A DNA stretch of 64,000 bases from the NCBI GenBank assembly GCA_017509755.1, contig JAFWOY010000027.1, positions 1,983-65,982 of the forward strand, read 5' to 3'. The stretch is from Bacteroidales bacterium. GTDB lineage: Bacteria; Bacteroidota; Bacteroidia; Bacteroidales; UBA932. Below, piece by piece: positions 7,951-28,500 of this stretch. Each line of letters begins with the position of its first letter. The stretch's first letter is position 1. The notes below the pieces were generated by a model, which worked only from the letters and a program-made list of their open reading frames with translations, ran no database searches and was not told the origin of the DNA. Made by a program: the position numbers and the translations under genes.

Positions 7951-7958
7951 TATATTTG
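7951..7958 (+). promoter_or_regulatory. Candidate -7 element TATATTTG
   Basis: TAnnTTTG match 19 nt upstream of ATG 7978. Confidence 0.4.
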
Positions 7959-7977
7959 AAGGTATAAAACACGCATC

Positions 7978-9246: not shown

Positions 9247-9251
9247 TTTGT

Positions 9252-12200
9252 ATGAAACGGATTTTGCTTCTGTTTGCCGCCGTGCTGGCTGTCACTGCCG
9301 TATCGGGGCAGAACCTTCGTTTTGCGAGTCGTCCCTCACTTTCGCCAGACGGTCAGACACTTTATTTCTCATACCTGGGTGATATCTATACGGTCCCTGC
9401 CACTGGCGGACAGGCCATGAGCCTTGTCGCCATGCAAGGGAAGAAGAATCATCCGCTCGTGTCTCCGGACGGAAAATGGCTTGCCTTTTCTTCTGATATC
9501 AATGGAAACCAGGATGTATTTGTCGTTCCCGTAGGGGGAGGACAGGCTGTCCAGCTGACATATCACGAGGCCAATGATTTCCCGGTCTCCTGGTCGCCCG
9601 ATGCGAAAACCCTCTATTTCGAGTCCCAGCGATCAGGTTCACGCCGGACGACCTATTGTGTATCCGTGACGGGCGGTACGCCGCAACTGCTGTTCGATGG
9701 TTATTTCACGACCGTGGTCAATCTGGTCGAGAATCCGAAAGACGGTACGTTCTATTTCAATGAGTCGGCCGAGAGCATCAATTTCCCGACGCGCAAACGC
9801 TATGTCGGCGACCATAACCCGAATATCCAGTCGTGGAATCCCAAGAAGAGACAATACGCCGCGCTGACGGACTATGAAGGCAAGGACACATGGCCGATGG
9901 TCGATTCCAAAGGTACGCTGTATTATGTAACCGATGAACTGAACAAGGAGTCGAACATCGTGAAATACGTTCCGGGGGAGAAACCCGCCTATCTGACACG
10001 TTTCAACAGTTCGGTCCAATATCCGCGCATCGCCTGGAACGGTTCGAAGATCACGTATCTGCTCGATTATGAGATTCACGTGCTGGATCCCGCCAGCGGG
10101 AAAGATGTGGTTCCCCACATTGTCGTGACCGCTCCGGATCCTTCGGTCCGCAGGTCGTTCGAGAAACAGAATCCTTCTGCCGGAGCGGTTTCGCCCGACG
10201 GCAAGAAACTTGCTTTCGTCGTCCGGGGTTTCCTGTATGTAACGGATACCAAGGGCAAATTCTTCCAGCGTATGGCAACGCCCGATGATGAACGCGTTCA
10301 CGAGGTCATCTGGGGCGCTGACAACAAAACCCTCTATTACACCCGGACCCAGCACGGCTGGGTGGATCTGTTCCGCATTTCAGCCGACAACAAGGGCACC
10401 GAAACGGTCGTCTATACTTCGCAGGCCAATGTCAAGAGTTTAACGGTGTCGCACAAGGGTGACAAGATCGCTTTCGTTGATGGAAGCGACCGCGTCATGC
10501 TGTACGATGTGAAAGCCGGAACGACCGAAAAGATCGCGGATGCCGAGTTCTGGTCCTTCCAGCAATACGACCTTTCGTTCTCGGGCGATGACAGTTGGCT
10601 GGCTTTCGAGGCCATGGACCGTTTCGAGCCCGACATCTTCCTGTATTCGTTCGCTGACAAGAAACTACTGAACCTGACGCACTCCGCTTCGACCGAGCGG
10701 GAGCCGGTATTCTCGCCCGACGGGAAATATCTGTATCTGATCGCGTCCCCGACAACCTCCTCATTCCCGCGTGGTTACAGCGGACAGCTCTACAAACTGG
10801 CCCTGCAGAAATACGACACGAAATTCAAATCCGATACGTATGACCAGTTGTTCGACGCCAAGAAACCATCCAAGGATTCAGTCGTACGCATCGACACGAA
10901 GGATATTTTCGAGCGAATGACCCCGGTTGAACGCAGCGGCCGCCAGATGGGCCTGCACCTGTATCAGGCCAAGGGAAAGACGCTGCTGCTCTACACGTCC
11001 TTCTCGGACGGAGTACGCGAGGTTCGCGCCCTGGACATTGATGACCCGGAAGCCAGGCCGAAGGCCATTAAAGGTCTTGCTCCCGGTGCTTTCTTCAGTT
11101 CGAAAGAAGGTCTCTATCACCTGACACGCGGCAAGGTCAACAAGATTGATCCGAATTCGTTGAATGCGACGGAGGTCCCGGTTACTGTCAATGTGGACAA
11201 GACGCTTTCCGACGAATTCTCCCAGATGTTCTATGAGACTTGGGCGACGTTGGCCCAGAATTTCTATGATGTCAACTACCACAGTGCTGATTGGACGGCA
11301 GTCCGCGACCGCTATGCGGCATTCCTGCCTGATATCAAGAGCCGGGACCAGCTCCGTACCCTGATGGCTGACCTGTTGGGCGAACTGAATTCCTCTCACC
11401 TGGGTTTCAATTCGATGGGGGCAGAAGAAAGGACCGAGACCCGGATGCATTCCATCGTAACGGGCATCCTGTTCGACAACAAGGATCCTTATGTCGTGGC
11501 TTCCATCCTGCCCGGATCGACCGCCGATAAAGTTGAAATCGACATTCGGAAAGGCGACCGCCTCGTGGCTGTCGATGGCGTACGTACCATGCCTTCAGTC
11601 AATCGCGAGAAATATCTCTCCACGCCCTTGCAGAAAGAGGAGGTGAAACTCACGTTCAATCGTTCCGGCAAAGAATTCGATGTCAAGGTCCACACCATGC
11701 CGCAGATGGCTTTCCGCAACCTGCAGTACAAACAGTGGGAAGACGCCTGCAAGGCTAAAGTGGAGAAGGATGGAGCAGGGAAGATCGCTTATATCCATAT
11801 GCGTGCGATGGGTGGGGAAGACCTGGATTCCTTCCTTACGCAGATGCACACCTATGCGGTTAACCGGGATGCCCTGATTCTCGACCTGCGTTACAATAAC
11901 GGCGGCAACGTGCATCAGGAGGTCATCGACTTCTTGCGACAGAAACAGCACTTCCAGTGGAGTTACCGCGGTTTTGCCAAAGTGTCGCACCCCAACGTAA
12001 CTCCTTCAGACAAGCCGATCGTCGTGCTTGTCAACGAACACAGCCTCAGTGACGCGGAAGTGACTTCCAATGGTATCCAGACGCTGGGCCTGGCCAAACT
12101 TGTCGGTACGGAGACCTATCGCTGGATCATCTTCACTTCGTCTGTCGGTTTGATTGACGGTTCGTCATCCCGCATGCCGGCTTGGGGCTGCTACAACAAC

Positions 12201-12341
12201 GCGGGGCAGGACCTCGAATTCCTGGGCGTCAAGCCGGATATTTATGTGAAGAATACCTTCAAGGACCGCATCACAGGTGCTGACCCGCAACTGGATGCCG
12301 CCATCAAAGAAGTTCTCAGGCAACTTAAGGAAAACAAATAA
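9252..12341 (+). CDS. Tricorn-protease-homologue type S41 peptidase (beta-propeller + PDZ + S41)
   Basis: Signal peptide. TolB-like propeller repeats (SPDGQTLYFSY, SPDGKWLAFSS, SPDAKTLYFES, SPDGKKLAFVV, SPDGKYLYLIA). S41 core LILDLRYNNGGNVHQ and VVLVNEHSLSDAEV. Confidence 0.8.
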   Translation: MKRILLLFAAVLAVTAVSGQNLRFASRPSLSPDGQTLYFSYLGDIYTVPATGGQAMSLVAMQGKKNHPLVSPDGKWLAFSSDINGNQDVFVVPVGGGQAVQLTYHEANDFPVSWSPDAKTLYFESQRSGSRRTTYCVSVTGGTPQLLFDGYFTTVVNLVENPKDGTFYFNESAESINFPTRKRYVGDHNPNIQSWNPKKRQYAALTDYEGKDTWPMVDSKGTLYYVTDELNKESNIVKYVPGEKPAYLTRFNSSVQYPRIAWNGSKITYLLDYEIHVLDPASGKDVVPHIVVTAPDPSVRRSFEKQNPSAGAVSPDGKKLAFVVRGFLYVTDTKGKFFQRMATPDDERVHEVIWGADNKTLYYTRTQHGWVDLFRISADNKGTETVVYTSQANVKSLTVSHKGDKIAFVDGSDRVMLYDVKAGTTEKIADAEFWSFQQYDLSFSGDDSWLAFEAMDRFEPDIFLYSFADKKLLNLTHSASTEREPVFSPDGKYLYLIASPTTSSFPRGYSGQLYKLALQKYDTKFKSDTYDQLFDAKKPSKDSVVRIDTKDIFERMTPVERSGRQMGLHLYQAKGKTLLLYTSFSDGVREVRALDIDDPEARPKAIKGLAPGAFFSSKEGLYHLTRGKVNKIDPNSLNATEVPVTVNVDKTLSDEFSQMFYETWATLAQNFYDVNYHSADWTAVRDRYAAFLPDIKSRDQLRTLMADLLGELNSSHLGFNSMGAEERTETRMHSIVTGILFDNKDPYVVASILPGSTADKVEIDIRKGDRLVAVDGVRTMPSVNREKYLSTPLQKEEVKLTFNRSGKEFDVKVHTMPQMAFRNLQYKQWEDACKAKVEKDGAGKIAYIHMRAMGGEDLDSFLTQMHTYAVNRDALILDLRYNNGGNVHQEVIDFLRQKQHFQWSYRGFAKVSHPNVTPSDKPIVVLVNEHSLSDAEVTSNGIQTLGLAKLVGTETYRWIIFTSSVGLIDGSSSRMPAWGCYNNAGQDLEFLGVKPDIYVKNTFKDRITGADPQLDAAIKEVLRQLKENK

Positions 12342-13814
12342 ATGAAATCATTGCGCTATACCCTGGCAGCAGCGGTTCTCCTGCTGGCCCTGCTGCCAGC
12401 CTTCGCCCAGCGAGGCAGTCAGCGTCCCCGGACCCCTGAACAGGACTTCCTGGACGCCATGTTTGACCATATCAAAGGCGTTGAAATATTCGATTGTGTC
12501 CGCATCCTCTCCGATTCCACACTGTTCCAGGGCCGCCTCAGCGGCTCTCGGGGCATGCGCCGGGCCGTGGACTGGGTCAGTTCCCGTTACGAGGAAATCG
12601 GCTTGGAAAAAGTTCCTGGCCTTTATGGCTATGACTATTCGTACCCGGTGGAGTGCACGGAGGTGACAGGACCGTGTGAAGTATCTGTTGACGGTCGTGT
12701 CTGCACTTGGGCCCTGGAATGGTACGCTGGAGGCACATCTGCCAACGGAGTAGCGGAAGCAGAGATCGTCTTTGCCGGTTTTGGCGTTTCAGCACCGGAA
12801 CTGGGTTATGACGACTATGCCGGCATCGATGTGCGGGGCAAGATCGTGTTGATAGAAGGGGAGACCCCCAACACCAGTCGCAACGACGATACGCTCCGCA
12901 TCTGGTATCCGTACACACTCCACCAGTATAAGGTGGCTAATGCGGTCGCCCACGGGGCCATCGGAATGCTCTATCGCTGGGTTCCCGGTCCGAACAACGG
13001 CTACGATCCTTCTTTCGTGTACGCCTATGTGACTGACGAACTGGCCGATGAGATTGTGGCCGGAAAGGCGGACCATTTCCAGTCGCTGATCCGGGAGCTC
13101 CGGAGCAAGAAAAAAACCGCCTCCTTCGCCACCGGCAAGAAAGCCCGGATCCAGATGACGATGACGCACCGGACCAATGCTTTGGGGCATAACCTGCTGG
13201 GTATGGTCAAAGGCAGCGATCCGGAACTATGCGATGAGTATGTGATCCTGTCGGCCCACTTGGACCATCTGGGCATGATTCCCTATCACATCGCCGGGGC
13301 CAATGACAACAATTCATCGACCGCCTGCTTGCTGGCTGTCGCTAAAGCGCTGCAGGCCAGCAAGGTCAAACCGAAGCGCAGTGTCATTTTCCTGTCGCTC
13401 GACGGCGAGGAAGCAGGCCTGACAGGCAGTTTGTATCTGACCGCCCATCCCGTAGTGCCGGCCGACAAAGTCAAGTTTATCCTGAATCTCGAACAGATCG
13501 GTATCGGCAGGGCTTTTTCCGTTGGATACAAATACGATGCTCCGGAAATCATCGACTATGTGAAAGAAGCCAACGAAAAATACATCCACAGACCCTTGTC
13601 GTTTTACCCCAACCGCTATGTGACGCGGCCGCGTACCGATGGCGCCGTGTTTATGAAAAACGGCTATCCAACCGTTGATTTCTATTCGGTCGGCGGGCGG
13701 TCTTATTATCATGAACCGCGTGACAGCTGGGAAATCCAGGATCCGTCTACGTTGCAGGATGCGGCTCGAGCGCTTTTCTGGAGTGTGATCAATGCCGCCA
13801 ATGCTGTTAACTGA
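12342..13814 (+). CDS. M28 family metallopeptidase (secreted)
   Basis: Signal peptide. M28 metal-ligand pattern SAHLDHLG, GANDNNSSTACLLAVAKAL, LSLDGEEAGLTGS. Confidence 0.8.
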   Translation: MKSLRYTLAAAVLLLALLPAFAQRGSQRPRTPEQDFLDAMFDHIKGVEIFDCVRILSDSTLFQGRLSGSRGMRRAVDWVSSRYEEIGLEKVPGLYGYDYSYPVECTEVTGPCEVSVDGRVCTWALEWYAGGTSANGVAEAEIVFAGFGVSAPELGYDDYAGIDVRGKIVLIEGETPNTSRNDDTLRIWYPYTLHQYKVANAVAHGAIGMLYRWVPGPNNGYDPSFVYAYVTDELADEIVAGKADHFQSLIRELRSKKKTASFATGKKARIQMTMTHRTNALGHNLLGMVKGSDPELCDEYVILSAHLDHLGMIPYHIAGANDNNSSTACLLAVAKALQASKVKPKRSVIFLSLDGEEAGLTGSLYLTAHPVVPADKVKFILNLEQIGIGRAFSVGYKYDAPEIIDYVKEANEKYIHRPLSFYPNRYVTRPRTDGAVFMKNGYPTVDFYSVGGRSYYHEPRDSWEIQDPSTLQDAARALFWSVINAANAVN

Positions 13815-13864
13815 TAGGCCATGACGCCCAGAAGGATCTCTTTTGACCGATGGCAGGTGGCTGC

Positions 13865-16840
13865 TTACTTGTATAGCACCGTCGACACTGTCGAGTCGTA
13901 TTGGAAATTCGCGATGGATTGGCCGTTTTTCAGCCAGATTACAGATAGGGTAGGATTGTTGGTGCAATTCAGATAAGACAACGAGGCATTATTGCTGACA
14001 TCGAGGATGGTCAAACGGTTGTTAGCGCAGTGGAAGTTTTTTAGGAAAGGGCTGCCGCTGACGTCTAAAACAGATAGCTGGTTTCCTCCGCAATAAAGAT
14101 TGACCAACGCACTTTTATTGCTGACATCTAATTCTTTGAGAAGATTGTCGTTACACTCGATATCATAGATTCCGGGATTCTGGCGTAAATCGATGGCAGA
14201 AATCTTGTTTTTGCTGAAGCGAAGGAATTCAAGCTTGGGATTATGACTGACATCCAGGGCGGTCAATTGGTTTTGATTACATTGGAGGCTTTGCAATTCT
14301 GGATTATGACTTAAGTCCAAACCTGTCAGGAGTCCGCGAGCCCGATTAGAAATACTCCTTTGAACAATAATCCTATCTTCTTCATTTTTGTAAATACGGC
14401 TTGCCTCAAAGATTTCACCGCGACATTGCAGATAGCACAGGTACGCATTGTGTGAAAGATCCAATTCTTTTAGGTAGTTAGCTCCGATATCAAGGGTCGA
14501 GAGAAGAGGGTTCTGGCTTAAATCCAGGGACACGAGGTCGTTGTAATAGAGATCTAGTAAAAGCAATTGAGACAGCGGCGTGACATCCAATTCGGTCAGA
14601 TGGCTATAGCTGAGTGTCAGGTATTTTAGTTGGGTGAGTGGCGTCAGGTCCAGAAGGGTCAGGTTCGTATGTGGCGCTTGCAGCCGTGTCAGCCGGGTTG
14701 CTTCACCAAAGAGAAGCTTTTTAATCGGGTTCGCACTACAAGAAAGAGTTTGCAGGTTGCTGTTCTCGGACACGTCCAATTCGACCAATTGATTGAAGTC
14801 ACATTCTAAAACAAGAAGATTGGGGTTATGGGATACATCCAGCGAGACCAACTTACCTGTACATCCACTTGCCTGGGTATACTCGGTCCCGCAACAAATG
14901 AGTTCGCGCAGATTCGGGAAAAACCGAATTTCGGAAATGGAAGTGATCTCGTCCGTACAAATGGATATCTTTGTGATGGCTTCACGCTCGCTTATGGACA
15001 GATGACCATCTTTGTCGGTATCGAAATAAGCAAATAAATAGGTCCTGAAGAATGGATCGGCAACAGGAAAATCCGGATCGTCATCAGGTATATTGCCCTC
15101 TTTAAATGCGATCTTCGAGACCTCTTCATCATACTGCAGGGATATCGACTGTACAGTAAAAAGCCATATTGTCTTCAAGTAAGGATTATTGAAGCACGTG
15201 AGAATACGAAGAGCCAGATTGCCCGATACATCCAGCTCAGTCAGTTGGTTGTCTTCGCAAAGGAGGGCTGTCAGATTAGGGTTTTGACTGACATCCAGCC
15301 TGCTAAGCTGGTTATTGTTGCAGGCCAGCGTCGTGAGGCCAGGGTTGTTCCGTACATCCAACGCGGACAACTGGTTACATTGGCAGGACAGAAATGCAAG
15401 TTTCGGGTTTTGCGAAACATCCACCGAAAGCAGTTGGTTATTATCGCAATTGAGATACGCGAGAGAAGGGTTTCCAGATAAATCCAACTCGGTAAGTTCT
15501 CCGCGACCGCCACCGTCAGGATCGGTTGTACCGGAGCAGATCAATTTCGTGAGTCGAGTGAAATGCTTGACCTCTGTGATCGATCGGATGTTGTCGGTAC
15601 AAATGTCAATGGTGTCAATGGCTTCTACCTCTTCTTTCGATAACCAGTCATTCTTATCTTTGTCGAAGGAAGACAACAAATACGACCTGAAATTCGGATC
15701 GTCAATAGTGATATTAAGATGTGGAATGTCCGTTCCGCGAAATAAAACCGTAGCGATATCGGTGTCATATTGGAGGGAAACCGGTTGCCCCTTGCATAGC
15801 CAAATCTGGGCCAGCAGCGGATTATCGGAACAATCCAGTTCAGCCAGTACCGGATTGTTCGAAGCATCCAGACTGGTCAGCCGGTTGTTCTGGCAATGTA
15901 ATGTTTCCAATAACGGATTGGCGCTGATGTCCAGCGTATCAAGCGAACCTTGACCGGGGGCGGAACCTTGGCAGAATAGCGATTTCAACAAAGGCATCTG
16001 TCGGATTTCAGCGACAGAAGAGATACTGTCCGTACAAACGCGAATTGAAGTAAGTTGACCGAGTTCCCGATAGGAGAACGCGCCATCCCCGTTCAAATCG
16101 TGTTTTTCTGTCAGGTACCGTTCAAAGACAGGATCGGCGATAGGGGCAGGGAAATCTTCCGTACACGTCAAGGACAACGCAGAGGGACTATAGGCATACA
16201 CTTCGTTAGCGGTCTTCTCAGCGTTCTCCGCATATGCTCTGAAATAGTAGGTTTCACCGAATTCCAGTCCGGGAATTCGGGCAGTGAGTATAGAATCCTC
16301 TTCCAACGCGCAGGGTATCCGGTTCTTTTTCATTTCTTTCAAGTCGGGGGTCTTTCCATAGCAAAACCCCGTTTCATTGACGGGCCGGCCCCCATCATCC
16401 AATAGCACAGCGGTCAGGCGACCTTTCTGAAACGAAACCTCGGAGAGTAGCGCTGCGGATGTGGTTGGCATCTGCCGGGTAATCTCTTGGGAATATTTCT
16501 TTCTCAGTGTACTGGCCAGATAAGAGCGGAATACATACTTCATACCCGGTTTCAATTGGAGCGTGCAAGAGAAAGATGTCTCACTGTCTTTGGGTGGGTT
16601 GATAATCAGGGTATCTGCTGTACCGGAGAAAGCGTTTTCGGCAATCTCGAATCCATATTCGACAATATCTGGACGGGGTGTATAGGATCCCGACAACTGG
16701 ATGAACAGACGAGAGGGCATTTCCGGACCAAAACTGATGGTTGGTGGATTCGGCTCATTAGAGGGTGCAACCGGATCGGGCAGGCAAGACTGCAGAACCA
16801 AACTGAGGAATAGAATCAGAAGTCGGGAAAGCGCTTTCAT
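13865..16840 (-). CDS. Leucine-rich-repeat surface lipoprotein with three tandem DxDxDG-loop + LRR modules
   Basis: Lipobox LVLQSC. ATG at 16840 (the ORF-track start 16846 is TTG). Many LDVSxNPxLxxLxCxxNxL repeats. Three modules each open with ADPxFRxYL...D.D.DG...E...I.ICTD and close with IWLxxGQ..SLQYD. Confidence 0.85.
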   Translation of the reverse strand: MKALSRLLILFLSLVLQSCLPDPVAPSNEPNPPTISFGPEMPSRLFIQLSGSYTPRPDIVEYGFEIAENAFSGTADTLIINPPKDSETSFSCTLQLKPGMKYVFRSYLASTLRKKYSQEITRQMPTTSAALLSEVSFQKGRLTAVLLDDGGRPVNETGFCYGKTPDLKEMKKNRIPCALEEDSILTARIPGLEFGETYYFRAYAENAEKTANEVYAYSPSALSLTCTEDFPAPIADPVFERYLTEKHDLNGDGAFSYRELGQLTSIRVCTDSISSVAEIRQMPLLKSLFCQGSAPGQGSLDTLDISANPLLETLHCQNNRLTSLDASNNPVLAELDCSDNPLLAQIWLCKGQPVSLQYDTDIATVLFRGTDIPHLNITIDDPNFRSYLLSSFDKDKNDWLSKEEVEAIDTIDICTDNIRSITEVKHFTRLTKLICSGTTDPDGGGRGELTELDLSGNPSLAYLNCDNNQLLSVDVSQNPKLAFLSCQCNQLSALDVRNNPGLTTLACNNNQLSRLDVSQNPNLTALLCEDNQLTELDVSGNLALRILTCFNNPYLKTIWLFTVQSISLQYDEEVSKIAFKEGNIPDDDPDFPVADPFFRTYLFAYFDTDKDGHLSISEREAITKISICTDEITSISEIRFFPNLRELICCGTEYTQASGCTGKLVSLDVSHNPNLLVLECDFNQLVELDVSENSNLQTLSCSANPIKKLLFGEATRLTRLQAPHTNLTLLDLTPLTQLKYLTLSYSHLTELDVTPLSQLLLLDLYYNDLVSLDLSQNPLLSTLDIGANYLKELDLSHNAYLCYLQCRGEIFEASRIYKNEEDRIIVQRSISNRARGLLTGLDLSHNPELQSLQCNQNQLTALDVSHNPKLEFLRFSKNKISAIDLRQNPGIYDIECNDNLLKELDVSNKSALVNLYCGGNQLSVLDVSGSPFLKNFHCANNRLTILDVSNNASLSYLNCTNNPTLSVIWLKNGQSIANFQYDSTVSTVLYK

Positions 16841-16842
16841 GG

Positions 16843-17700
16843 TCAAAACAATACGCCAACACCCGCGCTGGCTTCGAGATACTTGAACTGATTGGTCCGA
16901 ATACCGGCTGATACGGCAACCGCATTCAATCGAAGCAGAAGACCGAATTCCAACTCAATGCCGGAGAAAGAATGTGTGCTGACACGAGCATACTGGTATT
17001 CCCCAGGGGCCATATACATTTCCCAGGCAAGGACACGGCTGCCATAACCACCTCCAGCATAAAGATATAGGGGGACAGCTAATTGTCTCAGGTAGCCCCC
17101 GGTAATGGCAAAGCGGCTTTTTCGGGAAGCTCCCGTGAACCAGGCTGTTTCGCCATCGACAGTTCCATCTCCTGAACAGTTGGATGATGGTTTGAGCATA
17201 CGATGGAAATCGCTTACGATATGGACATATCCGCCGTTTATTGTGCAAAGACCCAACATCAGCCCATAGGAAGTATGGGGCAGATTATACTGCACGGTCG
17301 GCAAAATGAGGGTATGGATGGGATTTGCGATGTCCAGAGAGAGGGTATAACCATAAGCGGGCATCAGCGGCTTGTCAAGCGGGAAAACAAAGTGTAGAAC
17401 CGCATAGCCGTCTACGCTGATATCAATCCATTTAGAATTGGCCGGTATGAAAACGACCCATTCTCCCGGGTATTGCAAGGGCTCTCCAATGATATTGCCG
17501 GCAAAATGAACGGAATCTTCTGAGGAGAGATAGATACTGATCATAGCAGAGGGTTGGCCGTTCTGATCATAGACCGGGGATGTCTTTGCCCTCAGTTCAA
17601 AAGGATTTACTTCAAAACTTCGTACGAGAAGGCGCTTTTCCTGGGCATGCAGGAAAAAAGGCAGGAAAAGGAATGCCAGCAGGAAAACAGCCTGTCTCAT
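16843..17700 (-). CDS. Exported protein, N-terminal beta-sandwich-like domain + C-terminal OM beta-barrel-like domain
   Basis: Signal peptide MRQAVFLLAFLFLPFFLHAQ. The C-terminal half has alternating hydrophobic strands and Gly/Tyr-rich turns and ends in ...SAGVGVLF (terminal Phe, typical of OM beta-barrels). ATGA overlap with the upstream gene. Confidence 0.7.
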   Translation of the reverse strand: MRQAVFLLAFLFLPFFLHAQEKRLLVRSFEVNPFELRAKTSPVYDQNGQPSAMISIYLSSEDSVHFAGNIIGEPLQYPGEWVVFIPANSKWIDISVDGYAVLHFVFPLDKPLMPAYGYTLSLDIANPIHTLILPTVQYNLPHTSYGLMLGLCTINGGYVHIVSDFHRMLKPSSNCSGDGTVDGETAWFTGASRKSRFAITGGYLRQLAVPLYLYAGGGYGSRVLAWEMYMAPGEYQYARVSTHSFSGIELEFGLLLRLNAVAVSAGIRTNQFKYLEASAGVGVLF

Positions 17701-18695
17701 TTGCCGATTCTGAAACTGTTGATGTCAATAATCTGGTTTTCGTCAAGCGCGCGGGTCCGTTCTTCGTCCATCCAGTAGGGTTGCCAGGTCCTGACGTGGA
17801 TCTGCGGTCTGTCTTCGTCCCTAAAATCCCAGAGCATAAACAAATAGCCTTCATCGGAATAGGGGATACCTCCGTCATAGAGAGATTCATAGCCCTGTTT
17901 TAGAAGAACCCCATAATAACCTTCAATGGAAGGATGCTTTGTTACTCGTATGTCGCTGAAATCAACCCGGATATATTTCGTATGCGGAAAAATGTGCTGT
18001 TTCAGTCTGTCGAGATACGCTTTTTTGGAATGCTTTGTATAAGCGATTTCATCGTTTATAATCGCAGTCCTGTCGCCGCGTTTCCTTTGAATAACCTTCC
18101 CGGTAATGATCAAAGCATCGTCGCTGAACACCATGTCCAGAAAATGGATATCCTTCTTGCAGTATGCTGTACGGAATTGCTCGACATAATCGAGGATCAT
18201 CTGCCGATGCCGCAGGTCGCCCACTTTACTACCGTCCGTCATGATTCTCCTATACAAATGGGAACCGATGGCCATATTGATGCGGGTAATGCGGCCGGAA
18301 CCGTCCATTTCGATCACAAGTTCCTGATAGTCATCGTTTCCTTGAAGATCCCGCATTTGGATTGGTACGTTCCTGACCTGCCAGCCGCCATTGTAGGTCC
18401 CGATAATCCGTTCCACGACCTTCGCTTCGTCACAATGAAAAGGCATGTTATCCCATAACACGATCACAGAAGTTTCGGCGTCTTTCGTAATGGAGACCGC
18501 TGAAAAATCGGGTATGGCGCCTTTCATGTCATAAGCCCGGTTAAATTCTGTCAGCAGCAGGGAAAGGTTGGCGTTGATCTTGTCTTTCAGCGGGCCGTTT
18601 TCCAGGCCGTCATTAATCAGAAAGGTAACCGTCTGCGCAGATAGTGCGGTATGTATGATGAGAAGCGCGACAAGCAGAAAGAAAGATCGTTTCAT
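17697..18695 (-). CDS. Exported hypothetical protein (C-terminal NTF2/SnoaL-like fold suspected)
   Basis: Signal peptide MKRSFFLLVALLIIHTALSAQ. RHRQMILDYVEQFRTAYCKKDIHFLDMVFSDDALIITG resembles the start of NTF2-like (DUF4440-type) domains. ATGA overlaps at both ends. Confidence 0.7.
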   Translation of the reverse strand: MKRSFFLLVALLIIHTALSAQTVTFLINDGLENGPLKDKINANLSLLLTEFNRAYDMKGAIPDFSAVSITKDAETSVIVLWDNMPFHCDEAKVVERIIGTYNGGWQVRNVPIQMRDLQGNDDYQELVIEMDGSGRITRINMAIGSHLYRRIMTDGSKVGDLRHRQMILDYVEQFRTAYCKKDIHFLDMVFSDDALIITGKVIQRKRGDRTAIINDEIAYTKHSKKAYLDRLKQHIFPHTKYIRVDFSDIRVTKHPSIEGYYGVLLKQGYESLYDGGIPYSDEGYLFMLWDFRDEDRPQIHVRTWQPYWMDEERTRALDENQIIDINSFRIGK

Positions 18696-19396
18696 TGTAG
18701 CATTTGCATGATAGTTTTGTCAACAAAAATCCAATAAGCAGGAACCATCCTATATTTCATCGGGTCCGTCAACGATCCGGATCGTATATTTGTCCTTACC
18801 CCCATGGAATCTCTTGGTGACATGATCTCGATGATACGGTCTGAAGAGTGTTCGTAATAGACCAGAAATCCGCCATCCACATATTCCTGGGGTGTCTCGA
18901 TCGTAACCGGTCCCGACATGATATGAGCTTTTGTTCGGGATGTTGGGAGCAATTCCTGAATGTCTGACAGAGTCTCGATTTCGGGCAGCTGGCGGAAAAA
19001 CTCCAGAATGGCATTTCGACTAACATGATCGAATGCCGCCGCTTCAATCTGTTCCAACTCCCGGAGATGCGACTTGCTGATATAAGCAATTGTCCGGTAA
19101 TGATTAGGATCTTTTCTCATCGTGATAAGCTGGATCACCTCTGGCGGACAAGCACTGGCTCCACGAATATACACAAAGCCATTCTCTTTCAGATAATGAG
19201 CCAGACGGTCGTTCAAGTCAAGCGTGGCTTCGACAACGGATTCTTCAAGGTCGGGCATCGTGCAACTGCCATACAGGTAGTCCGGATCAAGCTTGATAGC
19301 AGCCATCCGCGCAAGAAGCGAGTCTTGCGACTGTCCGGCTGCATACTGGAAAAAGAACATTCCGGCAAGAATAAACAGGATTAGTACTTTACGCAT
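18692..19396 (-). CDS. Exported hypothetical protein (234 aa)
   Basis: ATG 19396 gives the signal peptide MRKVLILFILAGMFFFQYAAGQ. The longer ORF-track start at 19510 would overlap the TIR gene by 130 nt and lacks a signal peptide. Confidence 0.65.
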   Translation of the reverse strand: MRKVLILFILAGMFFFQYAAGQSQDSLLARMAAIKLDPDYLYGSCTMPDLEESVVEATLDLNDRLAHYLKENGFVYIRGASACPPEVIQLITMRKDPNHYRTIAYISKSHLRELEQIEAAAFDHVSRNAILEFFRQLPEIETLSDIQELLPTSRTKAHIMSGPVTIETPQEYVDGGFLVYYEHSSDRIIEIMSPRDSMGVRTNIRSGSLTDPMKYRMVPAYWIFVDKTIMQMLQ

Positions 19397-20301
19397 TTTC
19401 CCAGCTGTTTGTCCAACTCGATGTCGGGATAATCGCCCAACTTGATGAACGCTATTTTTTCTCCATCGGCATGGTGCCATTCGCCGTAATTCAGGTGACC
19501 GCGAGTCCAATTTCCAATAATATAATCCCCGACTTCCGCAGTTCGTGCCTGAGGATCGTGCATATCGATACGCCGACGGTGCATAAAGGTGTAAGTGCCA
19601 CTTCCATCGGGCAATCCGGATATGATTGTCCCGGTAAACGTATCGGTGTCAGGGCCCGTACGGGGCTGTTCCTTGACAATTACTATTTGTGGCGGCCTGT
19701 TTCGGATCACTACGGGTTTTTCCACCACGAAGGTATCGAAGGCAGGAGGTGATGAATTCACAGGCTCCGATGCAGGCCGGTTATTTTTGATCCAAGGGGG
19801 CAACAACAAGAAGGCTGCGAGTGCCAAGATACCCAACAAAGGGAGGATGAAAAGCCGTGCTTTATTGCCTTTAGCGGGCGATTCTGAAATGCTGACAGGT
19901 AAATTGCCATTCTGCTGCTTAAGAATGATCTTCTCAAGCACGGCAAAGTCTTTCTTGAAGTCCCCCGAATAGGGGATTCGCTGTTTATAAGAAAGGTAGT
20001 ATTCCAGATCATCGTCGAAGGGCGTATCATCCAGGCAATAGGGGAGAATGAATTTGGAACTGTTGAAGGCCAGGTTGATTTCTGTCTTTACATGCTCCGA
20101 TTGGCTCGCGTTCTTGGAACAGATGACGACAACGAGGAGGGCCGCACGGATTGCACGTGTGATTTCGCCCGCATAAGAGACGCCTGATTGAATGTCGCGA
20201 GGTGCAATCCAGCAGGAAACATCATGTGACTCTAGCCAGTTGCAAAGGGATTCGGCAATCTTCCGGTCCCGCCGTCCATAACTGATGAAGACTTTGGTCA
20301 T
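19381..20301 (-). CDS. TIR domain - single TM - MORN-repeat membrane protein
   Basis: ATG 20301 forms ATGA with the upstream stop. KVFISYGRRDRKIAESLCNWLESHDVSCWIAPRDIQSGVSYAGEITRAIRAALLVVVICSKNASQSEHVKTEINLA is a TIR_2-type pattern. TM helix LFILPLLGILALAAFLLLPPWI. MORN-like YIIGNWTRGHLNYGEWHHADGEKI. Confidence 0.8.
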   Translation of the reverse strand: MTKVFISYGRRDRKIAESLCNWLESHDVSCWIAPRDIQSGVSYAGEITRAIRAALLVVVICSKNASQSEHVKTEINLAFNSSKFILPYCLDDTPFDDDLEYYLSYKQRIPYSGDFKKDFAVLEKIILKQQNGNLPVSISESPAKGNKARLFILPLLGILALAAFLLLPPWIKNNRPASEPVNSSPPAFDTFVVEKPVVIRNRPPQIVIVKEQPRTGPDTDTFTGTIISGLPDGSGTYTFMHRRRIDMHDPQARTAEVGDYIIGNWTRGHLNYGEWHHADGEKIAFIKLGDYPDIELDKQLGKCVKY

Positions 20302-21290
20302 GCAAAATCTTTCCAGCTCAATTTCTTGCCGCAGGAAGGGCAGTATTTCATATTCGGCGCTACCGGCCCTGAACAATGGGGACATTTGTAGCTCTCTCCA
20401 CGTGAGAGGTTGAATCCCAGCTTCTTGACGAGTCTCAGCGCGTCGAAGGCGGTCCGTCTGTCATATTCTTTTTCTGATTCTGGCAAGTCGGAGTAGGGGA
20501 CCATGTCAGGATTCTGCTTCAGCCTGTCATCCCGGAGGGGGCCATAGCTCCAGCCTTCTTTCTTGCGTTCGGCAGCCCATACTTCATGGGTATTTTCCGC
20601 GATGGTTTCAGTCAGTTCAAGCAATTCATCATCGAGCAATACATCTGTCAAATCAATCGGATGTGGATCATAGGCCAAGGAATCGATATCCGAACTAACC
20701 AGATAACGCCGTGAGGCGCGCCATGCTTCCAGGAAATCTTCGATCAGCCAGTCCATGTCTTTTTCTTCAGCCGGATCGTAGATTTTTATCAATCCGCCGA
20801 CCAAAGAGAGCGGGACGACTGCATGAAAACGGTTATCCCGTGCGATGACCGCAATCATTTTCACCCGGCGGAGCATATTGATTCGAATGTCTTCAACCGT
20901 ACAATCATATTTGCGGCAAACTGACAGACCGTGTTGTTCCAGAAGACGGCCGATATTATACAAAGGCATGCCTTCCTTTCGTAGCCAGCGGTTCGTGCTG
21001 ATATCGATGGAAAGAGTATCATCATCTACCAGATAGTCACGCAAGATCCGTTGCTCGCATTGGATGTCGCACAAGTTGTCCTCTGAGGCGGCGGCTAATT
21101 TCGCCATCGGAATACCGGCGCCTTTCGATTCTTCATATCGGTCAATGCAATTGATGATGAACAAAGTCTCACGCAGCGATTCGTCATGTGCAAGTGCTTC
21201 AACCACTCGCATTGTCTCCTCCGGGGTTGTCGTTCCCTCCGTATAGGCCGCTAACAGCTCGTCGGATATTTCGTAGCGATTATTTTTCAT
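20298..21290 (-). CDS. Anti-sigma-like N-terminus + C39/papain-like segment + RyR domain + zinc ribbon (soluble)
   Basis: ATG 21290 overlaps the sigma gene stop by 11 nt. ISDELLAAYTEGTTTPEETMRVVEAL is anti-sigma-like. TETIAENTHEVWAAERKKEGWSYGPLRDDRLKQNPDMVPYSDLPESEKEYDRRTAFDALRLVKKLGF is a near-consensus RyR domain. CPHCSGPVAPNMKYCPSCG is a zinc ribbon. Confidence 0.8.
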   Translation of the reverse strand: MKNNRYEISDELLAAYTEGTTTPEETMRVVEALAHDESLRETLFIINCIDRYEESKGAGIPMAKLAAASEDNLCDIQCEQRILRDYLVDDDTLSIDISTNRWLRKEGMPLYNIGRLLEQHGLSVCRKYDCTVEDIRINMLRRVKMIAVIARDNRFHAVVPLSLVGGLIKIYDPAEEKDMDWLIEDFLEAWRASRRYLVSSDIDSLAYDPHPIDLTDVLLDDELLELTETIAENTHEVWAAERKKEGWSYGPLRDDRLKQNPDMVPYSDLPESEKEYDRRTAFDALRLVKKLGFNLSRGESYKCPHCSGPVAPNMKYCPSCGKKLSWKDFA

Positions 21291-21852
21291 AATACTTGAC
21301 ATCTTTTTGTGCAACTTGCGTGAATTCGGCGATAGCACGCCTTTTAATGTTGTAAAGTGTCGCAGCCGTGATCTTCATTTCATTGGCGAGCTTTTCCGGC
21401 TCCATGTCATTAAGGATCAATTGTTGAAGAACATAGGCGTACCTTTTGTTTTTCATCCGGTGCAAGATCCGGAGCATGTCTTTCCTCGCAGTATCGCGCG
21501 TAGGGCCATCGGCCAATTTTTCTTCTGCTACTTTGTCCAAAAGAGCATCCTGGCTACGTTTCTCTGCCAGATTGTCTCTTTTTTTGATAAAAAAACGAGT
21601 TGCACTGACTTTTATCCAGCCAAACAGCGAACTACGATCCCGAATTTGACGGAGTCTGTAGCCATCGTTCTCAAGCAGGTAGGCATAGAACTCACTGACA
21701 GCTTCTTCATACTCGACCGGGTAAGGGAAAACATAATTCAGAATGTTCATTAACAGGAGTTTGCAAGATTTTTCCTTATCGGAAAAAAAGAAATGCCGGG
21801 TAATCCGTTCATCCTTGGAAAGCAGTCCTTCGATGATTTCGGTTTCAGTCAT
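21280..21852 (-). CDS. RNA polymerase sigma-70 family (ECF-like) sigma factor
   Basis: 190 aa from ATG 21852 (ORF-track start 21903 is TTG). Region-2-like SSLFGWIKVSATRFFIKKR. Region-4 HTH-like RYAYVLQQLILNDMEPEKLANEMKITAATLYNIKRRAIAEF. Confidence 0.75.
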   Translation of the reverse strand: MTETEIIEGLLSKDERITRHFFFSDKEKSCKLLLMNILNYVFPYPVEYEEAVSEFYAYLLENDGYRLRQIRDRSSLFGWIKVSATRFFIKKRDNLAEKRSQDALLDKVAEEKLADGPTRDTARKDMLRILHRMKNKRYAYVLQQLILNDMEPEKLANEMKITAATLYNIKRRAIAEFTQVAQKDVKYYEK

Positions 21853-21990
21853 AGAGTCGTTTCTCAATTTTATGCAATTTACGACATATTTTGTGAAAAA
21901 CAAAATTTATACAATTTATATTATGTTAAATAGTATTTATCGCGTGCCCCTCCTGCGTTCGATTTGATTCGTGTGACGCAAATTTTTCGT

Positions 21991-21998
21991 TACCTTTG
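21991..21998 (+). promoter_or_regulatory. Candidate -7 element TACCTTTG immediately upstream of rarA
   Basis: TAnnTTTG match ending only 5 nt before GTG 22004. If used, it implies a leaderless or near-leaderless mRNA. Confidence 0.3.
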
Positions 21999-22003
21999 TC
22001 ACA

Positions 22004-24856: not shown

Positions 24857-25531
24857 CTATAAAACAGCCTTTCGGAAGGGAGCGCTCGCTACTTGCGCGC
24901 CCTTGTTGACATAGAGTGTGATCAGCGAGTCAGCAGCAGGGGCAGCCAGGAGAAACGTATGGGAAACGCTGTCATGCGCCGTATCGATCAGGCGCAGCTT
25001 CTCGGCCGCATCATATCGCCACTTGCCGTGCCCGAACAAGAAGACATACTCCCCTTTTCCCTTTGCCGCCAATTCAGGCAGCGGTTGCGCGAAATGCCAG
25101 GAGACGGTCTTGCCGTCGCCATTGAACCAGAGGGTATCTCGATCGCAGACAAAGGTACCGTTATGTGCGGCCGGAAAGGGCGTTCCCGGATCCGGCGGCG
25201 TATGGGTATAGGAGCAACTGGAAAAGAAACCGATCAGCAGGATGACCAACGGAATGACGATGAAAATCAGGACGAATATCCAGCATCCGATTTTCCGGCC
25301 TTCTTTTTTAGGCGCGGCCTTTCCTTCCGGGCGAGACGGCGCCTTTTTCGGCTTCGGTTCGGGTGTTACTTCCCAGGTGGAGAGCGTAACCACGCCGGGC
25401 GCATCGGAAGCGTGGACTACATCTTTATCACCGGACTGCGGGGTAACCGCGGCCGTCACGCGCGTGCCGCAATTCGCGCAGAATTTGGCGCCCGGTTCCA
25501 GTTTTGCGCCGCAGTTTGTACAGAATGCCAT
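24857..25531 (-). CDS. Zinc-ribbon - TM - extracytoplasmic domain protein
   Basis: ATG 25531 (ORF-track start 25546 is TTG). CTNCGAKLEPGAKFCANCG zinc ribbon, Lys/Pro-rich linker, TM helix IGCWIFVLIFIVIPLVILLIGFF, then a ~110-aa C-terminal domain. Confidence 0.7.
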   Translation of the reverse strand: MAFCTNCGAKLEPGAKFCANCGTRVTAAVTPQSGDKDVVHASDAPGVVTLSTWEVTPEPKPKKAPSRPEGKAAPKKEGRKIGCWIFVLIFIVIPLVILLIGFFSSCSYTHTPPDPGTPFPAAHNGTFVCDRDTLWFNGDGKTVSWHFAQPLPELAAKGKGEYVFLFGHGKWRYDAAEKLRLIDTAHDSVSHTFLLAAPAADSLITLYVNKGAQVASAPFRKAVL

Positions 25532-25538
25532 AATCTGA

Positions 25539-28500
25539 TTAACCAATATTAAACAATGTATCCCCCAACTCTTCCAGCAGTGAATCGCGCGTATAGCCCA
25601 TTCTAGTCAGCATCGCATCCAGTTCCGAAAGTGTACATCCCTTGCTGCCGGGATCGAAGAGTTTCTCACATTCGCTGATAGCCGTACGAAGACGCATCGA
25701 AATCTTACTGCCGCCATTTTCCCCGGCACGGGCGATATCGCGCGGGTTGATGTAATTCTTGAATTGCTTCATGCCCTGCCGGAGTCCTTCCATATATTTG
25801 TTGACGGCTTCCGAACGGAGCGTCAGACGTTCGGTCTCATCCAGGACATTCTCGGCCTGCTTCAGAAGGGAATCTCCCTCCCTGAACCACTCTTTTCCCT
25901 TGTAGGTAACGGCATCCGCCACCTTTTTCGGATCGGACAGTTGCATATGCACCTTCTGGGGATCCATCAGGATGTCGATATCCTTTCCGTAGCTTTCAGG
26001 ATGGTTCAGCACATCTTCGATGTTGGTCTGGTCGATGGATTTGGCAAACTTGTTGGACAGTTCTGCACTCTTGCTCCGGAAGCCCAAGCCCGCATCCGCA
26101 ATCTGATGGTTGTAGATCTGGGTGGTCATATTCTGGTCGAAATACACCTTTTCTCCCTTCGCATTGCGGTAGAAATAGGTGACGTCCCGGTCGATGGTGA
26201 CCTTCTTGCCTTTCCGCATCAGGTCCAGGTCGGCATTCTTGCTCGCATTGAATACCTCAATCCGATCGGCAGGGATTCCGTAGATCTGGCTCAGTGTCTT
26301 CTTGGCATTGAGGTCCGCTTTCGCGTACATTTCCCCCAGCGTCTCATTCAATTCTTTGCGGGTAAGGTCCAAGGAATCGTCCGCATAGTTCTGGAGCAGA
26401 TACATCGCCTGCTTGTTTTTCTGGCATTTGATGACCAGCTGGTTCTTCAGCTTCAGGTTCTCGGGACTCATCGGATTCATGTGGTACAGTTCCACAGCCG
26501 CCTGTAAGTCCTTGACATCCTGCAGCGCACGCTTCCGGCCGTAATCCACCGCATCGTCCAGCGGATTCGGCGTTTTCTGGGACTTGACCAGGTCCATGAA
26601 CTGGTCTGCATTCCGGCTGGCGGCATCCATGGCATTCTTCGAATTCTGGATGGCGTTCTTGGTGACCTTTCCTTTGATGGAACTGAAGAACTCACCGGCC
26701 TCCGCCTTCATCTCCTGGAAGGCGTCTTTCAGGCTATCCTTAGTAATACCGGCCTTGGCGGCCATCTCCCCCACCTTCTTCATTCCGAAGGCCATTCCCT
26801 TCTCCATCAGATACTCCCGGCCAACAATCTTGGCGCCGACGCAGAAACCGCCCCAAACGCTGTCACCGCCCTTGTCCACATATTCCTTCATGCTCCGCGC
26901 TACCTCCAGGGTCGTGAAGACGACATCCGCACAACCCAAAGTAGCCACACCCAAGGCGAGACGGCTGAAGAAGCCCATGGAATCTTCGACCTCTTTCGCT
27001 TTGTCGAAGAAACAGGAGACAAACAGGAGCACCTCATCCGCAATCGTCAGCGGCTTGACGTCTCCGTTGGCCCCGAAACTCTCTCCGGAAACGACACCGT
27101 TGAAGATCCGCTTCACGGTCTCGACCTGCTGGGGATCGTAACCATAGTCGGCACTGTAGCCGTCCACGATCGTATCGATGAACTTGTCGAGCGAGAAGAG
27201 CTGCCGGTACATGTTCAGATAATGGATCTGGCTCTGGATATGAACCAACTGCTCGGAAATGTGCTGATCCCGTTTGAGGGCCTCCATATATTCCGATGTC
27301 GGCAGGTCACGCCGGGGCTGGGAACACAACAGGACGTCCGCATACCCATAATAATCACGCCCGTTGAAGGAAGTCTTCAACATGATCTGGGCCTTGATGC
27401 GGGAAGGAGCGTCAAGCGTGGCCTGGCAGCAGCGGAAGAAACAGAGCCGGGCCCGGTCTTCGATTGTTCCACTGCTTACGTCACACTGGATGGCAAGTTT
27501 GTCCACCATATCCTGCTTGGTGTCATCCAAGGCCACAATCTTGTAGTCAGTCGGGACTGGCGCAATCTCAAGTACCTTGTGCTCATTCTCGTCATAATCA
27601 AAGAGCGTAATCCGGGCCTTGGTCTCGGCGGGCACATAGGTTTTCCCGTCCATGCCTTTCGCGGCAAAACGCCGGGTCTGGTGCCGCGAGGGGTCATATT
27701 CCTCTATAAAACACTTGACCTCATAAATGCCAGCCAGTGCAAGACCCATCTGGAAGCGCAATACTTCCAGCTCGTTCTCGATGGCGCTCCCCTTGCCGCT
27801 CCGGGCCGTCACTTTCAGGGAGTAGCGCTCGAATTCACCAGGCATCAGGGTCGGAACTTTCTCTCCCGGCTTTGGAGGAATAAATTTCTCTGTTATGATA
27901 GCCTCGTGCAGTCGTGTCTCCTTGTTCCACGTCGTTTTCACTTCATAGCGCCCACCCGGAATTACTGCTTTGACCTGGGCTTCCTCATCCATGCCGACAA
28001 CCAGGAACGGCAAATGGATGGGTTTGTCGTACCCCACGGGAATTGTCAGGTTATCCTGGCCGAAGACAATCGCCCCGGCCCTGATTTTGAAATGCACGTG
28101 GTTCGTATAGGATCCTTTCCCACCGGCCAGCCGGAAGGTTACGACACCTTCTTCCGGTGCTTTGTCCGTCTCCGGGGCAACGACATCTGCGGCTTTCCAT
28201 CCTTCATGAAGTGCCGCGTGGGGAGAGACTTGCAGATAATTGTCGCCCGTGACGGTCAACATGGAAGTCAGCTGAAGGTCGGGCGTCTCTTCGCCCTGTG
28301 ACGGAATCTTCACGATCTGGGCATAGACCTGACGAGGCCCGTTGCCGGGAATGAGCGTATCGCCAAACTCCTTGTACATCCGCATCGCATAACGGACAGC
28401 CGGCTGATTGTCTTCTTCCTCTTCTTCTTCCGGTTCTTGATTGCCGGCATCTCCGTCGTCCGATGGCGCGGCCCGGCGTTTTCTCCGTCTGCGGATTGCA

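Follow-up and report, generated by a model that had tools for sequence, protein, structure and literature searches.

The 64,000-nt stretch analysed here, which will be referred to as the window, belongs to the genome of a Bacteroidales bacterium (contig JAFWOY010000027.1) and carries on its reverse strand a seven-gene operon, the second gene of which encodes a soluble protein of 330 amino acids (aa) with a ryanodine receptor (RyR) repeat domain, here termed the RyR protein. The protein starts with MKNNRYEISDELL, and the overlap of the gene's ATG at 21290 with the stop of the upstream sigma gene, already noticed in the original prediction for this DNA, amounts to 11 nt. On the downstream side, the stop of the gene and the TIR start at 20301 share an ATGA overlap. 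The gene order is sigma, RyR protein, TIR-TM (a TIR protein with a transmembrane, TM, helix), three secreted proteins (p272, p332 and p285) and a leucine-rich repeat (LRR) lipoprotein. Start and stop codons of all seven genes overlap by 4-16 nt each, and the genes form a translationally coupled operon. It is limited by a convergent gene at 12342-13814 (+) on one side and by a divergent RarA-like gene starting at 22004 (+) on the other, and no gene lies between the RarA start and the sigma start at 21852 (-). The features are compiled in Table 1.

Table 1. Features of the operon and of the RyR protein, in positions of the window.
Feature	Position	Strand	Description
Intergenic region	21853..22003	-	AT-rich; also upstream of the divergent RarA-like gene; presumably holds the operon promoter
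Sigma gene	21280..21852	-	Divergent ECF-type sigma factor (assigned by fold), 190 aa from ATG 21852
RyR protein gene	20298..21290	-	330 aa; head, C39-like peptidase, RyR domain, zinc ribbon
N-terminal three-helix head	21132..21275	-	Residues 6-53; anti-sigma-domain-like, without H-x3-C-x2-C zinc motif
C39/papain-like cysteine peptidase domain	20691..21110	-	Residues 61-200; Cys74, His156, Asp172
RyR (Repeat12-type) domain	20403..20672	-	Residues 207-296; nucleotide-binding type
4-Cys zinc ribbon	20319..20390	-	C-terminal; C303, C306, C317, C320
TIR-TM gene	19381..20301	-	306 aa from ATG 20301; N-terminal TIR, one TM helix, C-terminal domain
p272 gene	18692..19396	-	Secreted, 234 aa from ATG 19396; signal-peptide-like N-terminus
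p332 gene	17697..18695	-	Secreted; weak NTF2-like (DUF4440) match
p285 gene	16843..17700	-	Secreted; signal peptide; ends ...GVGVLF; possible outer-membrane beta-barrel
LRR lipoprotein gene	13865..16846	-	993 aa, lipobox LVLQSC, EF-hand-like motifs; final operon gene

The RyR assignment is beyond doubt. The domain matches Pfam PF02026 with 103.1 bits (cut-off 27.4; E = 9.8e-30) over 90 of the 91 profile positions, and phmmer matched the protein to a stand-alone RyR protein of B. thetaiotaomicron (3NRT, E = 2.5e-29) as well as to the four repeats of animal RyR1-3. In the AlphaFold (AF2) model of the protein (34-sequence alignment; mean pLDDT 83), the RyR domain was superimposed by Foldseek on 3NRT and 6UAG with TM-scores of 0.90-0.92, a root-mean-square deviation of 1.3-2.3 Å and 52-54% identity. 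These matches fully bear out the near-consensus RyR domain of the original prediction. Unlike the stand-alone 'putative ryanodine receptor' of B. thetaiotaomicron (3NRT, 4N05 and 6UAG; ~100 aa), which has no assigned role, the RyR protein adds a head, a peptidase domain and a zinc ribbon.

Two preprints of 2026, both on viral RyR domains, provide ligands for comparison. RyDEP of mycobacteriophage DyoEdafos is a glycosidase which opens 2'cADPR and 3'cADPR (cADPR, cyclic ADP-ribose) and contacts them by H75, W78, H100 and D117, whereas several of its homologues instead bind 2'cADPR and 3'cADPR at nanomolar affinity, and most phage homologues with the residues of RyDEP do not hydrolyse (PMC13232231). 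RyR Tad (gp68 of Pectobacterium phage CB1) is a back-to-back dimer and binds 1''-3' gcADPR (dissociation constant 43 nM) by the contacts H129/W132, K147/H154 and K170/D171 (10.64898/2026.06.04.730250). According to the literature, RyR domains are two-fold dimers with adenine nucleotides as ligands, and those of phages also bind the TIR products 2'cADPR and 3'cADPR (PMC13232231; 10.64898/2026.06.04.730250). By direct alignment to gp68, the contacts of RyR Tad fall on H235, W238, R253, N260, Y276 and D277 of the RyR protein; in this sequence alignment H235, W238, R253 and D277 are kept, whereas H154 is changed to N260 and K170 to Y276. The residues of RyDEP were placed by their identical spacing (3, 22 and 17 residues) on the H/W/N/D positions, and H100 likewise corresponds to N260. 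Among 112 family members, H235 and W238 are conserved in 100% and D277 in 99%. The RyR protein shares with RyDEP and RyR Tad the PF02026 domain, ~39-44% identity to the gp68 core and the His-x2-Trp, Lys/Arg and Asp contacts, and it is expected to form a dimer; unlike these small viral sponges or glycosidase, which serve counter-defence, it is cellular, multi-domain and linked to a sigma gene. In view of the two preprints, the earlier statement that bacterial RyR domains are without assigned function holds for cellular proteins but no longer for viral ones. In neither preprint are TIR signals said to be received by cellular RyR proteins (PMC13232231; 10.64898/2026.06.04.730250), and ryanodine receptors come up in a systematic survey of TIR-based systems in the animal context only.

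The family of the RyR protein comprises more than 1000 members in a set of 5.8 billion proteins and 196 clusters at 50% identity; species-representative genomes yielded 576 confirmed matches, nearly all of them in Bacteroidales of guts and rumens. For a locus survey, 80 Bacteroidales loci around family genes (L001-L080), of which 60 span at least 12 kb, were compared, and TIR genes were sought within ±8 kb. A sigma homologue was found directly upstream and on the same strand in 79 of the 80 loci, usually overlapping and in many families. An iterated TIR profile detected 87 TIR genes, which were spread over 52 loci; of the 60 loci with a length of at least 12 kb, 44 contained one or more. Depending on open reading frame (ORF) calling, TIR genes occur in 52-53 of the 80. 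Nearly all of the 87 (83/87) are co-directional with the sigma/RyR pair, and in 22 of 74 loci a TIR gene follows directly after the RyR gene. As a control, 80 Bacteroidota loci around homologues of the RarA protein of the window were searched in six frames with the same profiles, yielding no TIR and no RyR ORF in 0.75 Mb compared to 90 TIR and 119 RyR ORFs in 1.13 Mb of test loci. A survey of the adjacency of RyR, TIR and sigma genes in other genomes had been proposed together with the original prediction, and it showed enrichment. Sigma and RyR genes form a fixed pair across the Bacteroidales, in neighbourhoods rich in TIR genes. In locus L002, the entire TIR-p272-p332-p285-LRR cassette lies upstream of the sigma gene rather than downstream, and the link between TIR cassette and pair therefore survives rearrangement.

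The gene upstream of the RyR gene was accepted as encoding a divergent sigma factor of the ECF (extracytoplasmic function) type, judged by the fold of its model rather than by sequence thresholds. The AF2 model (pLDDT 82.7) consists of two helical domains with a disordered linker at residues 98-115, and the top-50 PDB matches obtained with Foldseek were all sigma-70-family proteins, mostly ECF and many solved with their anti-sigma partner. They were led by sigmaE/RseA (1OR7; E = 5.7e-3, probability 1.0), followed by AlgU-MucA, SigK-RskA and SigW-RsiW, and also included BldN. On the level of sequence the protein stayed below every curated threshold (TIGR02937, 18.1 bits vs 42.9; E = 1.6e-3), Sigma70_r2 was detected in 3/37 and r4_2 in 2/37 homologues, no precomputed Pfam domain was recorded for any of 120 listed homologues, and a PDB sequence search with the sigma profile gave nothing significant. 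Homologues have 182-190 aa and start with MT(D/E)xEII. Since ATG 21852 agrees with them, it was taken as the start, and the longer TTG ORF from 21903 is unlikely.

The head of the RyR protein is formed in the AF2 model by helices 10-17, 23-35 and 37-53, with G19 and E25 nearly invariant. It matched zf-HC2 weakly (E = 0.097; 3/34 homologues at E<0.01), as it did the N-terminus of RseA (HHalign P = 26%, E = 7e-4), and no anti-sigma chain was present among 60 listed PDB profile matches. The H-x3-C-x2-C zinc motif, which marks the ZAS subclass only, is not found in the head; the matching stretch, AHDESLRETL, contains no Cys. The anti-sigma role is assigned mainly because of the gene context and the sigma fold of the neighbour, not because of sequence similarity. 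As to the anti-sigma N-terminus proposed originally, the overlap with the sigma stop and the sigma-fold neighbour speak for it, whereas the similarity itself is weak. A profile of 30 N-termini matched calmodulins in the PDB (full E = 3.5e-5, per-domain E at least 0.28), but an EF-hand calcium site was rejected because the loop is without the first two acidic ligands and the per-domain E value is 0.28 or worse; the match (DG-x-T-x-x-E plus the following helices) is probably compositional. The same observations bear on the possibility that there is no anti-sigma factor here, the head being an unrelated helical or degenerate EF-hand-like module of a peptidase-RyR enzyme which shares only the operon with the sigma gene. 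Such a module would agree with calmodulin EF-hands as the only PDB matches of the head profile and with zf-HC2 and RseA similarities that are not significant. Nevertheless, a position directly after, and overlapping, a sigma-fold gene in 79/80 loci is a hallmark of sigma/anti-sigma pairs, and the EF-hand loop lacks the acidic ligands named above, so that we regard this as the least probable of the alternatives considered.

We suggest tentatively, and at somewhat less than an even chance, that the RyR protein is a nucleotide-sensing anti-sigma factor which switches the sigma factor in response to a TIR signal. The remaining parts of the protein and the neighbouring TIR genes have to be considered in this respect.

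Between head and RyR domain, Cys74 and Cys78 are located within NLCDIQCEQ, and His156 and Asp172 within NRFHAVVPLSLVGGLIKIYDP. The motifs C-x3-C-x3-IL-x2-Y and H-x15-D-P are both present, and we take the C-x3-C helix and the H-x15-D-P spacing to be the C39 signature. Over the 112 members Cys74, His156, Glu79, Trp102 and Gly107 are invariant and Cys78 is conserved in 99%; position 172 is Asp in 71% and Asn in 27%, together 98%. The RyR protein itself is sub-threshold for C39, the best match being the NCBIfam NF045998 peptidase-ABC model (E = 3e-4, 19 bits). At E<=0.01, Peptidase_C39_2 was matched by 8/34 homologues (best 5.4e-8) and Peptidase_C39 by 5/34, and the relative P0248, as the sole Pfam-scanned member shown to do so, clears the curated Peptidase_C39 cut-off (26.2 bits vs 22). 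Foldseek matched the modelled domain to the PCAT1 chains 8VP5, 6V9Z and 4RY2 with E values of 7e-7 to 3e-5 and probability 1.0. The Cys...His...Asp order that had been likened to C39/papain-like peptidases is thus supported by residues in place, by the Pfam hits of homologues and by the fold match to PCAT1.

The CxxC...CxxC zinc ribbon and the lack of a TM segment, both claimed for the RyR protein beforehand, were confirmed as well. All four Cys of the ribbon are present; the RyR protein is sub-threshold for it (E = 2e-4 to 4e-4), and Zn_Ribbon_1 was detected at E<=0.01 in 29/34 homologues (best 2.7e-8). As the ribbon is missing from 44 of the 112 relatives (39%), it is considered accessory. 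The highest 19-residue Kyte-Doolittle mean of the RyR protein is 1.10, compared to 2.66 obtained for the TIR protein by the same measure.

In the TIR-TM protein, TIR_2 (E = 1e-19) is followed by the TM helix at ~150-168, which accounts for the value of 2.66, and by a C-terminal domain of ~135 aa. The TIR domain is predicted to be cytoplasmic and the C-terminal domain to lie outside the cytoplasm. Glu74 within an S..S.WV..E motif corresponds to a Glu which 97% of 92 TIR domains of related loci possess, and it occupies the position of the catalytic glutamate of TIR NADases. A PDB sequence search with the TIR protein gave no match. PADLOC returned weak matches to the TIR domain only (best E = 2.5e-9, to a SAVED-TIR model) and none for the other six operon proteins. 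As in Thoeris, a TIR protein with the catalytic Glu adjoins a protein with a domain known to bind TIR products; unlike Thoeris, there is no ThsA-type effector, PADLOC matches are confined to the TIR domain, the predicted output is transcription, and the TIR proteins are mostly membrane proteins with outside domains.

The layout of the TIR-TM protein of the window, in which an N-terminal TIR domain is immediately followed by a TM helix and the C-terminal domain varies, is shared by 49 of 88 TIR proteins of the loci, and the variable domains include FGE-sulfatase-like and WD40 domains. Other TIR proteins of the loci are SIR2-TIR and Macro-TIR fusions. This mixture is relevant to the possibility that the RyR domain acts as an energy-state sensor that reads ATP/ADP, a role which has been proposed for the animal Repeat12 domain, and reports when TIR NADase effectors make NAD+/ATP collapse. 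The TIR proteins would then be outputs of the sigma regulon and not inputs. Human RyR3 Repeat12 has been solved with ATP, ADP and AMP-PCP (6UHH, 9L90 and 9L9B), and fusion of many TIR proteins to SIR2 or Macro is as in effector-type proteins. The commonest TIR layout, 49/88, is receptor-like, which argues against an energy sensor, and we consider it very unlikely.

RyR domains occur in the loci as three protein types, namely the RyR protein of this family, solo RyR proteins and TM-RCK-RyR proteins. Solo RyR proteins of ~96 aa and of the 3NRT type were observed in 27 loci (e.g., L048:13969-14259, L005:7953-8240 and L068:9030-9323); their genes lie in co-directional arrays and in some cases come immediately after that of the RyR anti-sigma protein, with whose single RyR repeat the solo proteins could pair. 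A solo RyR protein 71% identical to that of L048 is also encoded at L165:5983-6285 on a 12-kb sequence from human faeces (MT837259.1, 'UNVERIFIED Bacteriophage sp.') with no TIR or sigma gene nearby, which represents either a gut phage equipped with an RyR sponge of host type or a piece of bacterial DNA filed wrongly. TM-RCK-RyR proteins (~700-900 aa) start with TM helices, contain RCK/TrkA-like Rossmann domains and end with a divergent RyR domain; their genes lie directly upstream of the sigma gene, often overlapping, in ~50 loci (among them L045:9166-11385, L053:5139-7331, L024:5359-7434 and L068:5291-7426) and are absent from the window. They are channel-like proteins with a RyR domain in the vicinity of TIR genes. 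Two of them reached 29-30 bits for Pfam RyR, and Slo-like_RCK was matched with E = 4e-5.

Another alternative is a signal sink, in which the RyR domain, together with the nearby solo RyR proteins, hydrolyses or sequesters TIR-made cADPR isomers and thereby sets a threshold or ends the signal, and in which the sigma link couples only expression or stability to the system. H235 (100%) and D277 (99%), the equivalents of the catalytic dyad of RyDEP, are conserved in the family (PMC13232231), solo RyR proteins are found in 27 loci, and the same loci contain Macro-TIR fusions, another signal-degrading pairing. However, a sink leaves the fixed fusion to peptidase and head and the sigma coupling in 79/80 loci unexplained, and the majority of phage homologues that possess these residues are without hydrolytic activity (PMC13232231). 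In our view a sink is improbable, if slightly less so than an energy sensor.

Returning to the nucleotide-sensing anti-sigma factor, the following course of events is conceivable. At rest, the N-terminal helices would hold the sigma factor. An envelope or outside cue would activate the membrane TIR protein, which would convert NAD+ to a cyclic ADP-ribose-type messenger. The messenger would bind to the RyR domain and close a dimer with a second copy or with a small solo RyR protein; dimer closure would activate or reposition the C39 peptidase, which would cut the anti-sigma head or tether, probably in trans within the dimer. The freed sigma factor would then direct RNA polymerase to its regulon, probably including its own operon. 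The ligand-sensing or regulatory role linking TIR to transcription that had been proposed at the outset gains support from the TIR/sigma adjacency and from ligand residues that align to those of phage binders, binding itself being a prediction from the alignment. The proteolytic release step is held to be less likely than the sensor-to-sigma concept itself, as the search for a cleavage motif or a substrate gave none and the peptidase is without the oxyanion Gln.

Several observations weigh against this proposal. The anti-sigma assignment of the head is without significant sequence support, making it the weakest of the four parts. Asn260 replaces the His by which the phage proteins contact phosphate, at a position which varies between His (43%), Thr (32%) and Asn (23%) in the 112 members. 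No TIR gene lies within ±8 kb in 27-28 of the 80 loci, and the TIR proteins could be outputs, that is, NAD-depleting effectors, rather than inputs. Regarding the peptidase, the C39 oxyanion Gln expected ~6 residues before the Cys is absent, position 68 being variable and A66/A67 being conserved there, and neither the head nor the tether between head and peptidase nor the sigma family contains a conserved cleavage motif of the Gly-Gly type. N72, conserved in 87%, might substitute for the Gln. Since neither the cleavage motif nor the oxyanion Gln was found, substrate and catalytic activity remain predictions. The C39-like domain is, as judged from the model, real but divergent, a fold-level relative of C39 peptidases without two of their defining features. 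With the C39 domains of the bacteriocin ABC exporters PCAT1, ComA and LagD it shares the fold (E ~7e-7), the Cys-x3-Cys helix and the His-x15-Asp-Pro spacing; unlike them, it is cytoplasmic and fused to RyR, and neither an ABC transporter, which is absent from the operon, nor a membrane domain or double-glycine leader was found.

These features lead to a further alternative, ligand-tuned sequestration without cleavage, in which a nucleotide bound to the RyR dimer alters the grip on the sigma factor as in RsiG-WhiG and the C39-like domain serves as a second sigma-binding surface, as a scaffold or as a cutter of an unrelated substrate. The missing cleavage motif in tether and sigma factor and the missing oxyanion Gln would be accounted for in this way, and the tether is short: pLDDT is ~61 over residues 51-60, ~7 residues are flexible, and residues 61-73 are already part of the peptidase fold. 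Moreover, the nucleotide-bound anti-sigma complex RsiG-WhiG c-di-GMP (7LQ4) is among the fold matches of the sigma model. In the c-di-GMP-armed RsiG-WhiG of Streptomyces, as is proposed for the RyR protein, a nucleotide second messenger governs how a soluble anti-sigma factor holds its sigma factor, but fold, ligand and phylum are different and RsiG is without a protease domain. In C39-like domains that are inactive, the Cys is usually lost. Here, by contrast, Cys74 and His156 are invariant, Asp or Asn occupies position 172 in 98% of the 112 members, and C-x3-C and H-x15-DP are fully kept, and we therefore consider sequestration without cleavage unlikely, if less so than a signal sink.

Candidates for cleavage were inspected individually. 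A self-cleavage site in the tether was rejected, as there is no conserved small-residue pair in 53-60 and the invariant A66-A67 is part of the first strand of the peptidase fold. The head is superficially similar to a double-glycine leader in its I8/L13/Y16 spacing and G19, but position -2 is Asp/Glu/Ser rather than Gly, and this reading was rejected as well. An argument based on swapped sensors was sought by searching residues 1-200 against 1.84 billion representatives and was not obtained. Fusion of the head-peptidase module to RyR is nearly universal, which speaks for the nucleotide-sensing proposal: all ten longer relatives that were scanned carry RyR in 1-3 copies, and a few forms of ~214 aa are without RyR.

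Among systems of similar logic, CalpL-CalpT-CalpS of type III CRISPR (attributed to Rouillon et al. 2023) reportedly employs a cA4-activated SAVED-Lon protease which cleaves an anti-sigma factor and frees an ECF-like sigma factor. The logic of an immune-type nucleotide messenger, with sensor, protease, anti-sigma and ECF-like sigma factor encoded together, would be common to both cases. Unlike in CalpL-CalpT-CalpS, RyR takes the place of SAVED as sensor and a C39 papain-like domain that of Lon as protease, and the messenger would probably come from a TIR enzyme instead of Cas10; furthermore, sensor, protease and head are combined here in one chain, and cleavage is a proposal. By these comparisons, the RyR protein resembles nucleotide-gated anti-sigma protease systems but appears to belong to no described one. 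We found no paper joining RyR domains or cADPR to a sigma/anti-sigma pair, and no prior description of the cellular system.

TIR enzymes and NAD-derived messengers are central to the immunity of bacteria, plants and animals, and to our knowledge the outputs of bacterial TIR proteins are cell-killing effectors. If a TIR signal frees a sigma factor, transcription would join these outputs and RyR would become a new receptor domain on the host side, months after the use of RyR by phages against the same signals came to light. The RyR repeat is present four times per animal ryanodine receptor and is without an agreed function; a tractable bacterial model would allow ligand, conformational change and downstream effect to be measured. 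As the family is widespread in gut and rumen Bacteroidales, it may play a part in the sensing of phages, neighbours or the host by dominant gut bacteria. A more far-reaching speculation, which we hold to be rather unlikely, is that Bacteroidales possess a Toll-like trans-envelope pathway leading from outside modules through the membrane TIR protein and a cyclic ADP-ribose-type messenger to RyR readers, a counterpart and possibly the ancestor of animal cADPR-ryanodine receptor signalling. The outside modules would be the LRR lipoprotein and the WD40, FGE-sulfatase-like and p272-like domains, and the readers would be the anti-sigma protease, with transcription as output, and the channel-like TM-RCK-RyR protein of related loci, with an output at the membrane. 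If true, this would be the first cellular role of the RyR repeat outside the animal channel.

The outside proteins of the operon recur in related loci. p272, which has no match in Pfam, NCBIfam or PADLOC, is tied to the TIR receptor by a fusion: residues 237-450 of the TIR protein at L081:1655-3010 are 62% identical to p272, so that a p272-like domain forms the outside domain of a TIR-TM protein there. In the window, p272 is separate and secreted, and the TIR protein has a different, MORN-like tail. The closest relatives, whose RyR protein is 94% identical, have the order sigma, RyR protein, TIR, p285-like and LRR, with p332 absent; p332 again follows a TIR gene in L002, L024 and L039. p285 is kept in L002 and L081 and is possibly an outer-membrane beta-barrel, as suggested by its C-terminal aromatic signature alone. 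The LRR lipoprotein (LRR_4, E = 1e-25; EF-hand_6, E = 4e-7 as a profile match) has a 67% identical orthologue in L081. EF-hand-like calcium-binding motifs were noticed between its LRR blocks at residues ~603-630, and repeated D-x-D-x-DG...E segments ahead of each LRR block resemble dockerin- or EF-type spacers.

Recurrent companions in the surveyed loci are an M48 peptidase with zinc ribbon, PrsW protease, TPR proteins, an nSTAND1 NTPase and small zinc-ribbon proteins. A trio consisting of an M48 metallopeptidase of ~292 aa with C-terminal zinc ribbon and of two proteins of 85 and 168 aa, the latter with a zinc ribbon at its end, is located downstream of the pair in 16-24 loci (examples are L004:7757-8635, L060:12551-13057 and L037:11337-11594), and PrsW-family intramembrane proteases were observed in 9 loci.

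The G+C content of the operon is 43-50% compared to 53-57% in its flanks, with a dip at 14001-22000. The metagenomic relative L130, with a 91% identical RarA, is without window positions 9246-22000, and its homologue of 7362-9245 adjoins RarA directly; the operon is therefore located in a variable region. The segment of ~12.8 kb comprising the operon and two peptidase genes is accordingly present or absent between strains. A scan of the operon for promoters and terminators was uninformative and established no promoter, as it used the sigma-70 consensus, which is ill-suited to Bacteroidota. The window contains no second RyR gene and a single TIR gene, that of the operon. Elsewhere in the window, a gene at 24857-25546 (-), whose 229-aa product has a double zinc ribbon (FCTNCG...FCANCG) at its N-terminus as well as a TM helix, overlaps the end of the gene at 25539-29186 (-), which encodes 1215 aa with a signal peptide and a TM segment. 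Ribbons of the type found in the 229-aa protein are also carried by the RyR protein and by several proteins encoded in related loci.

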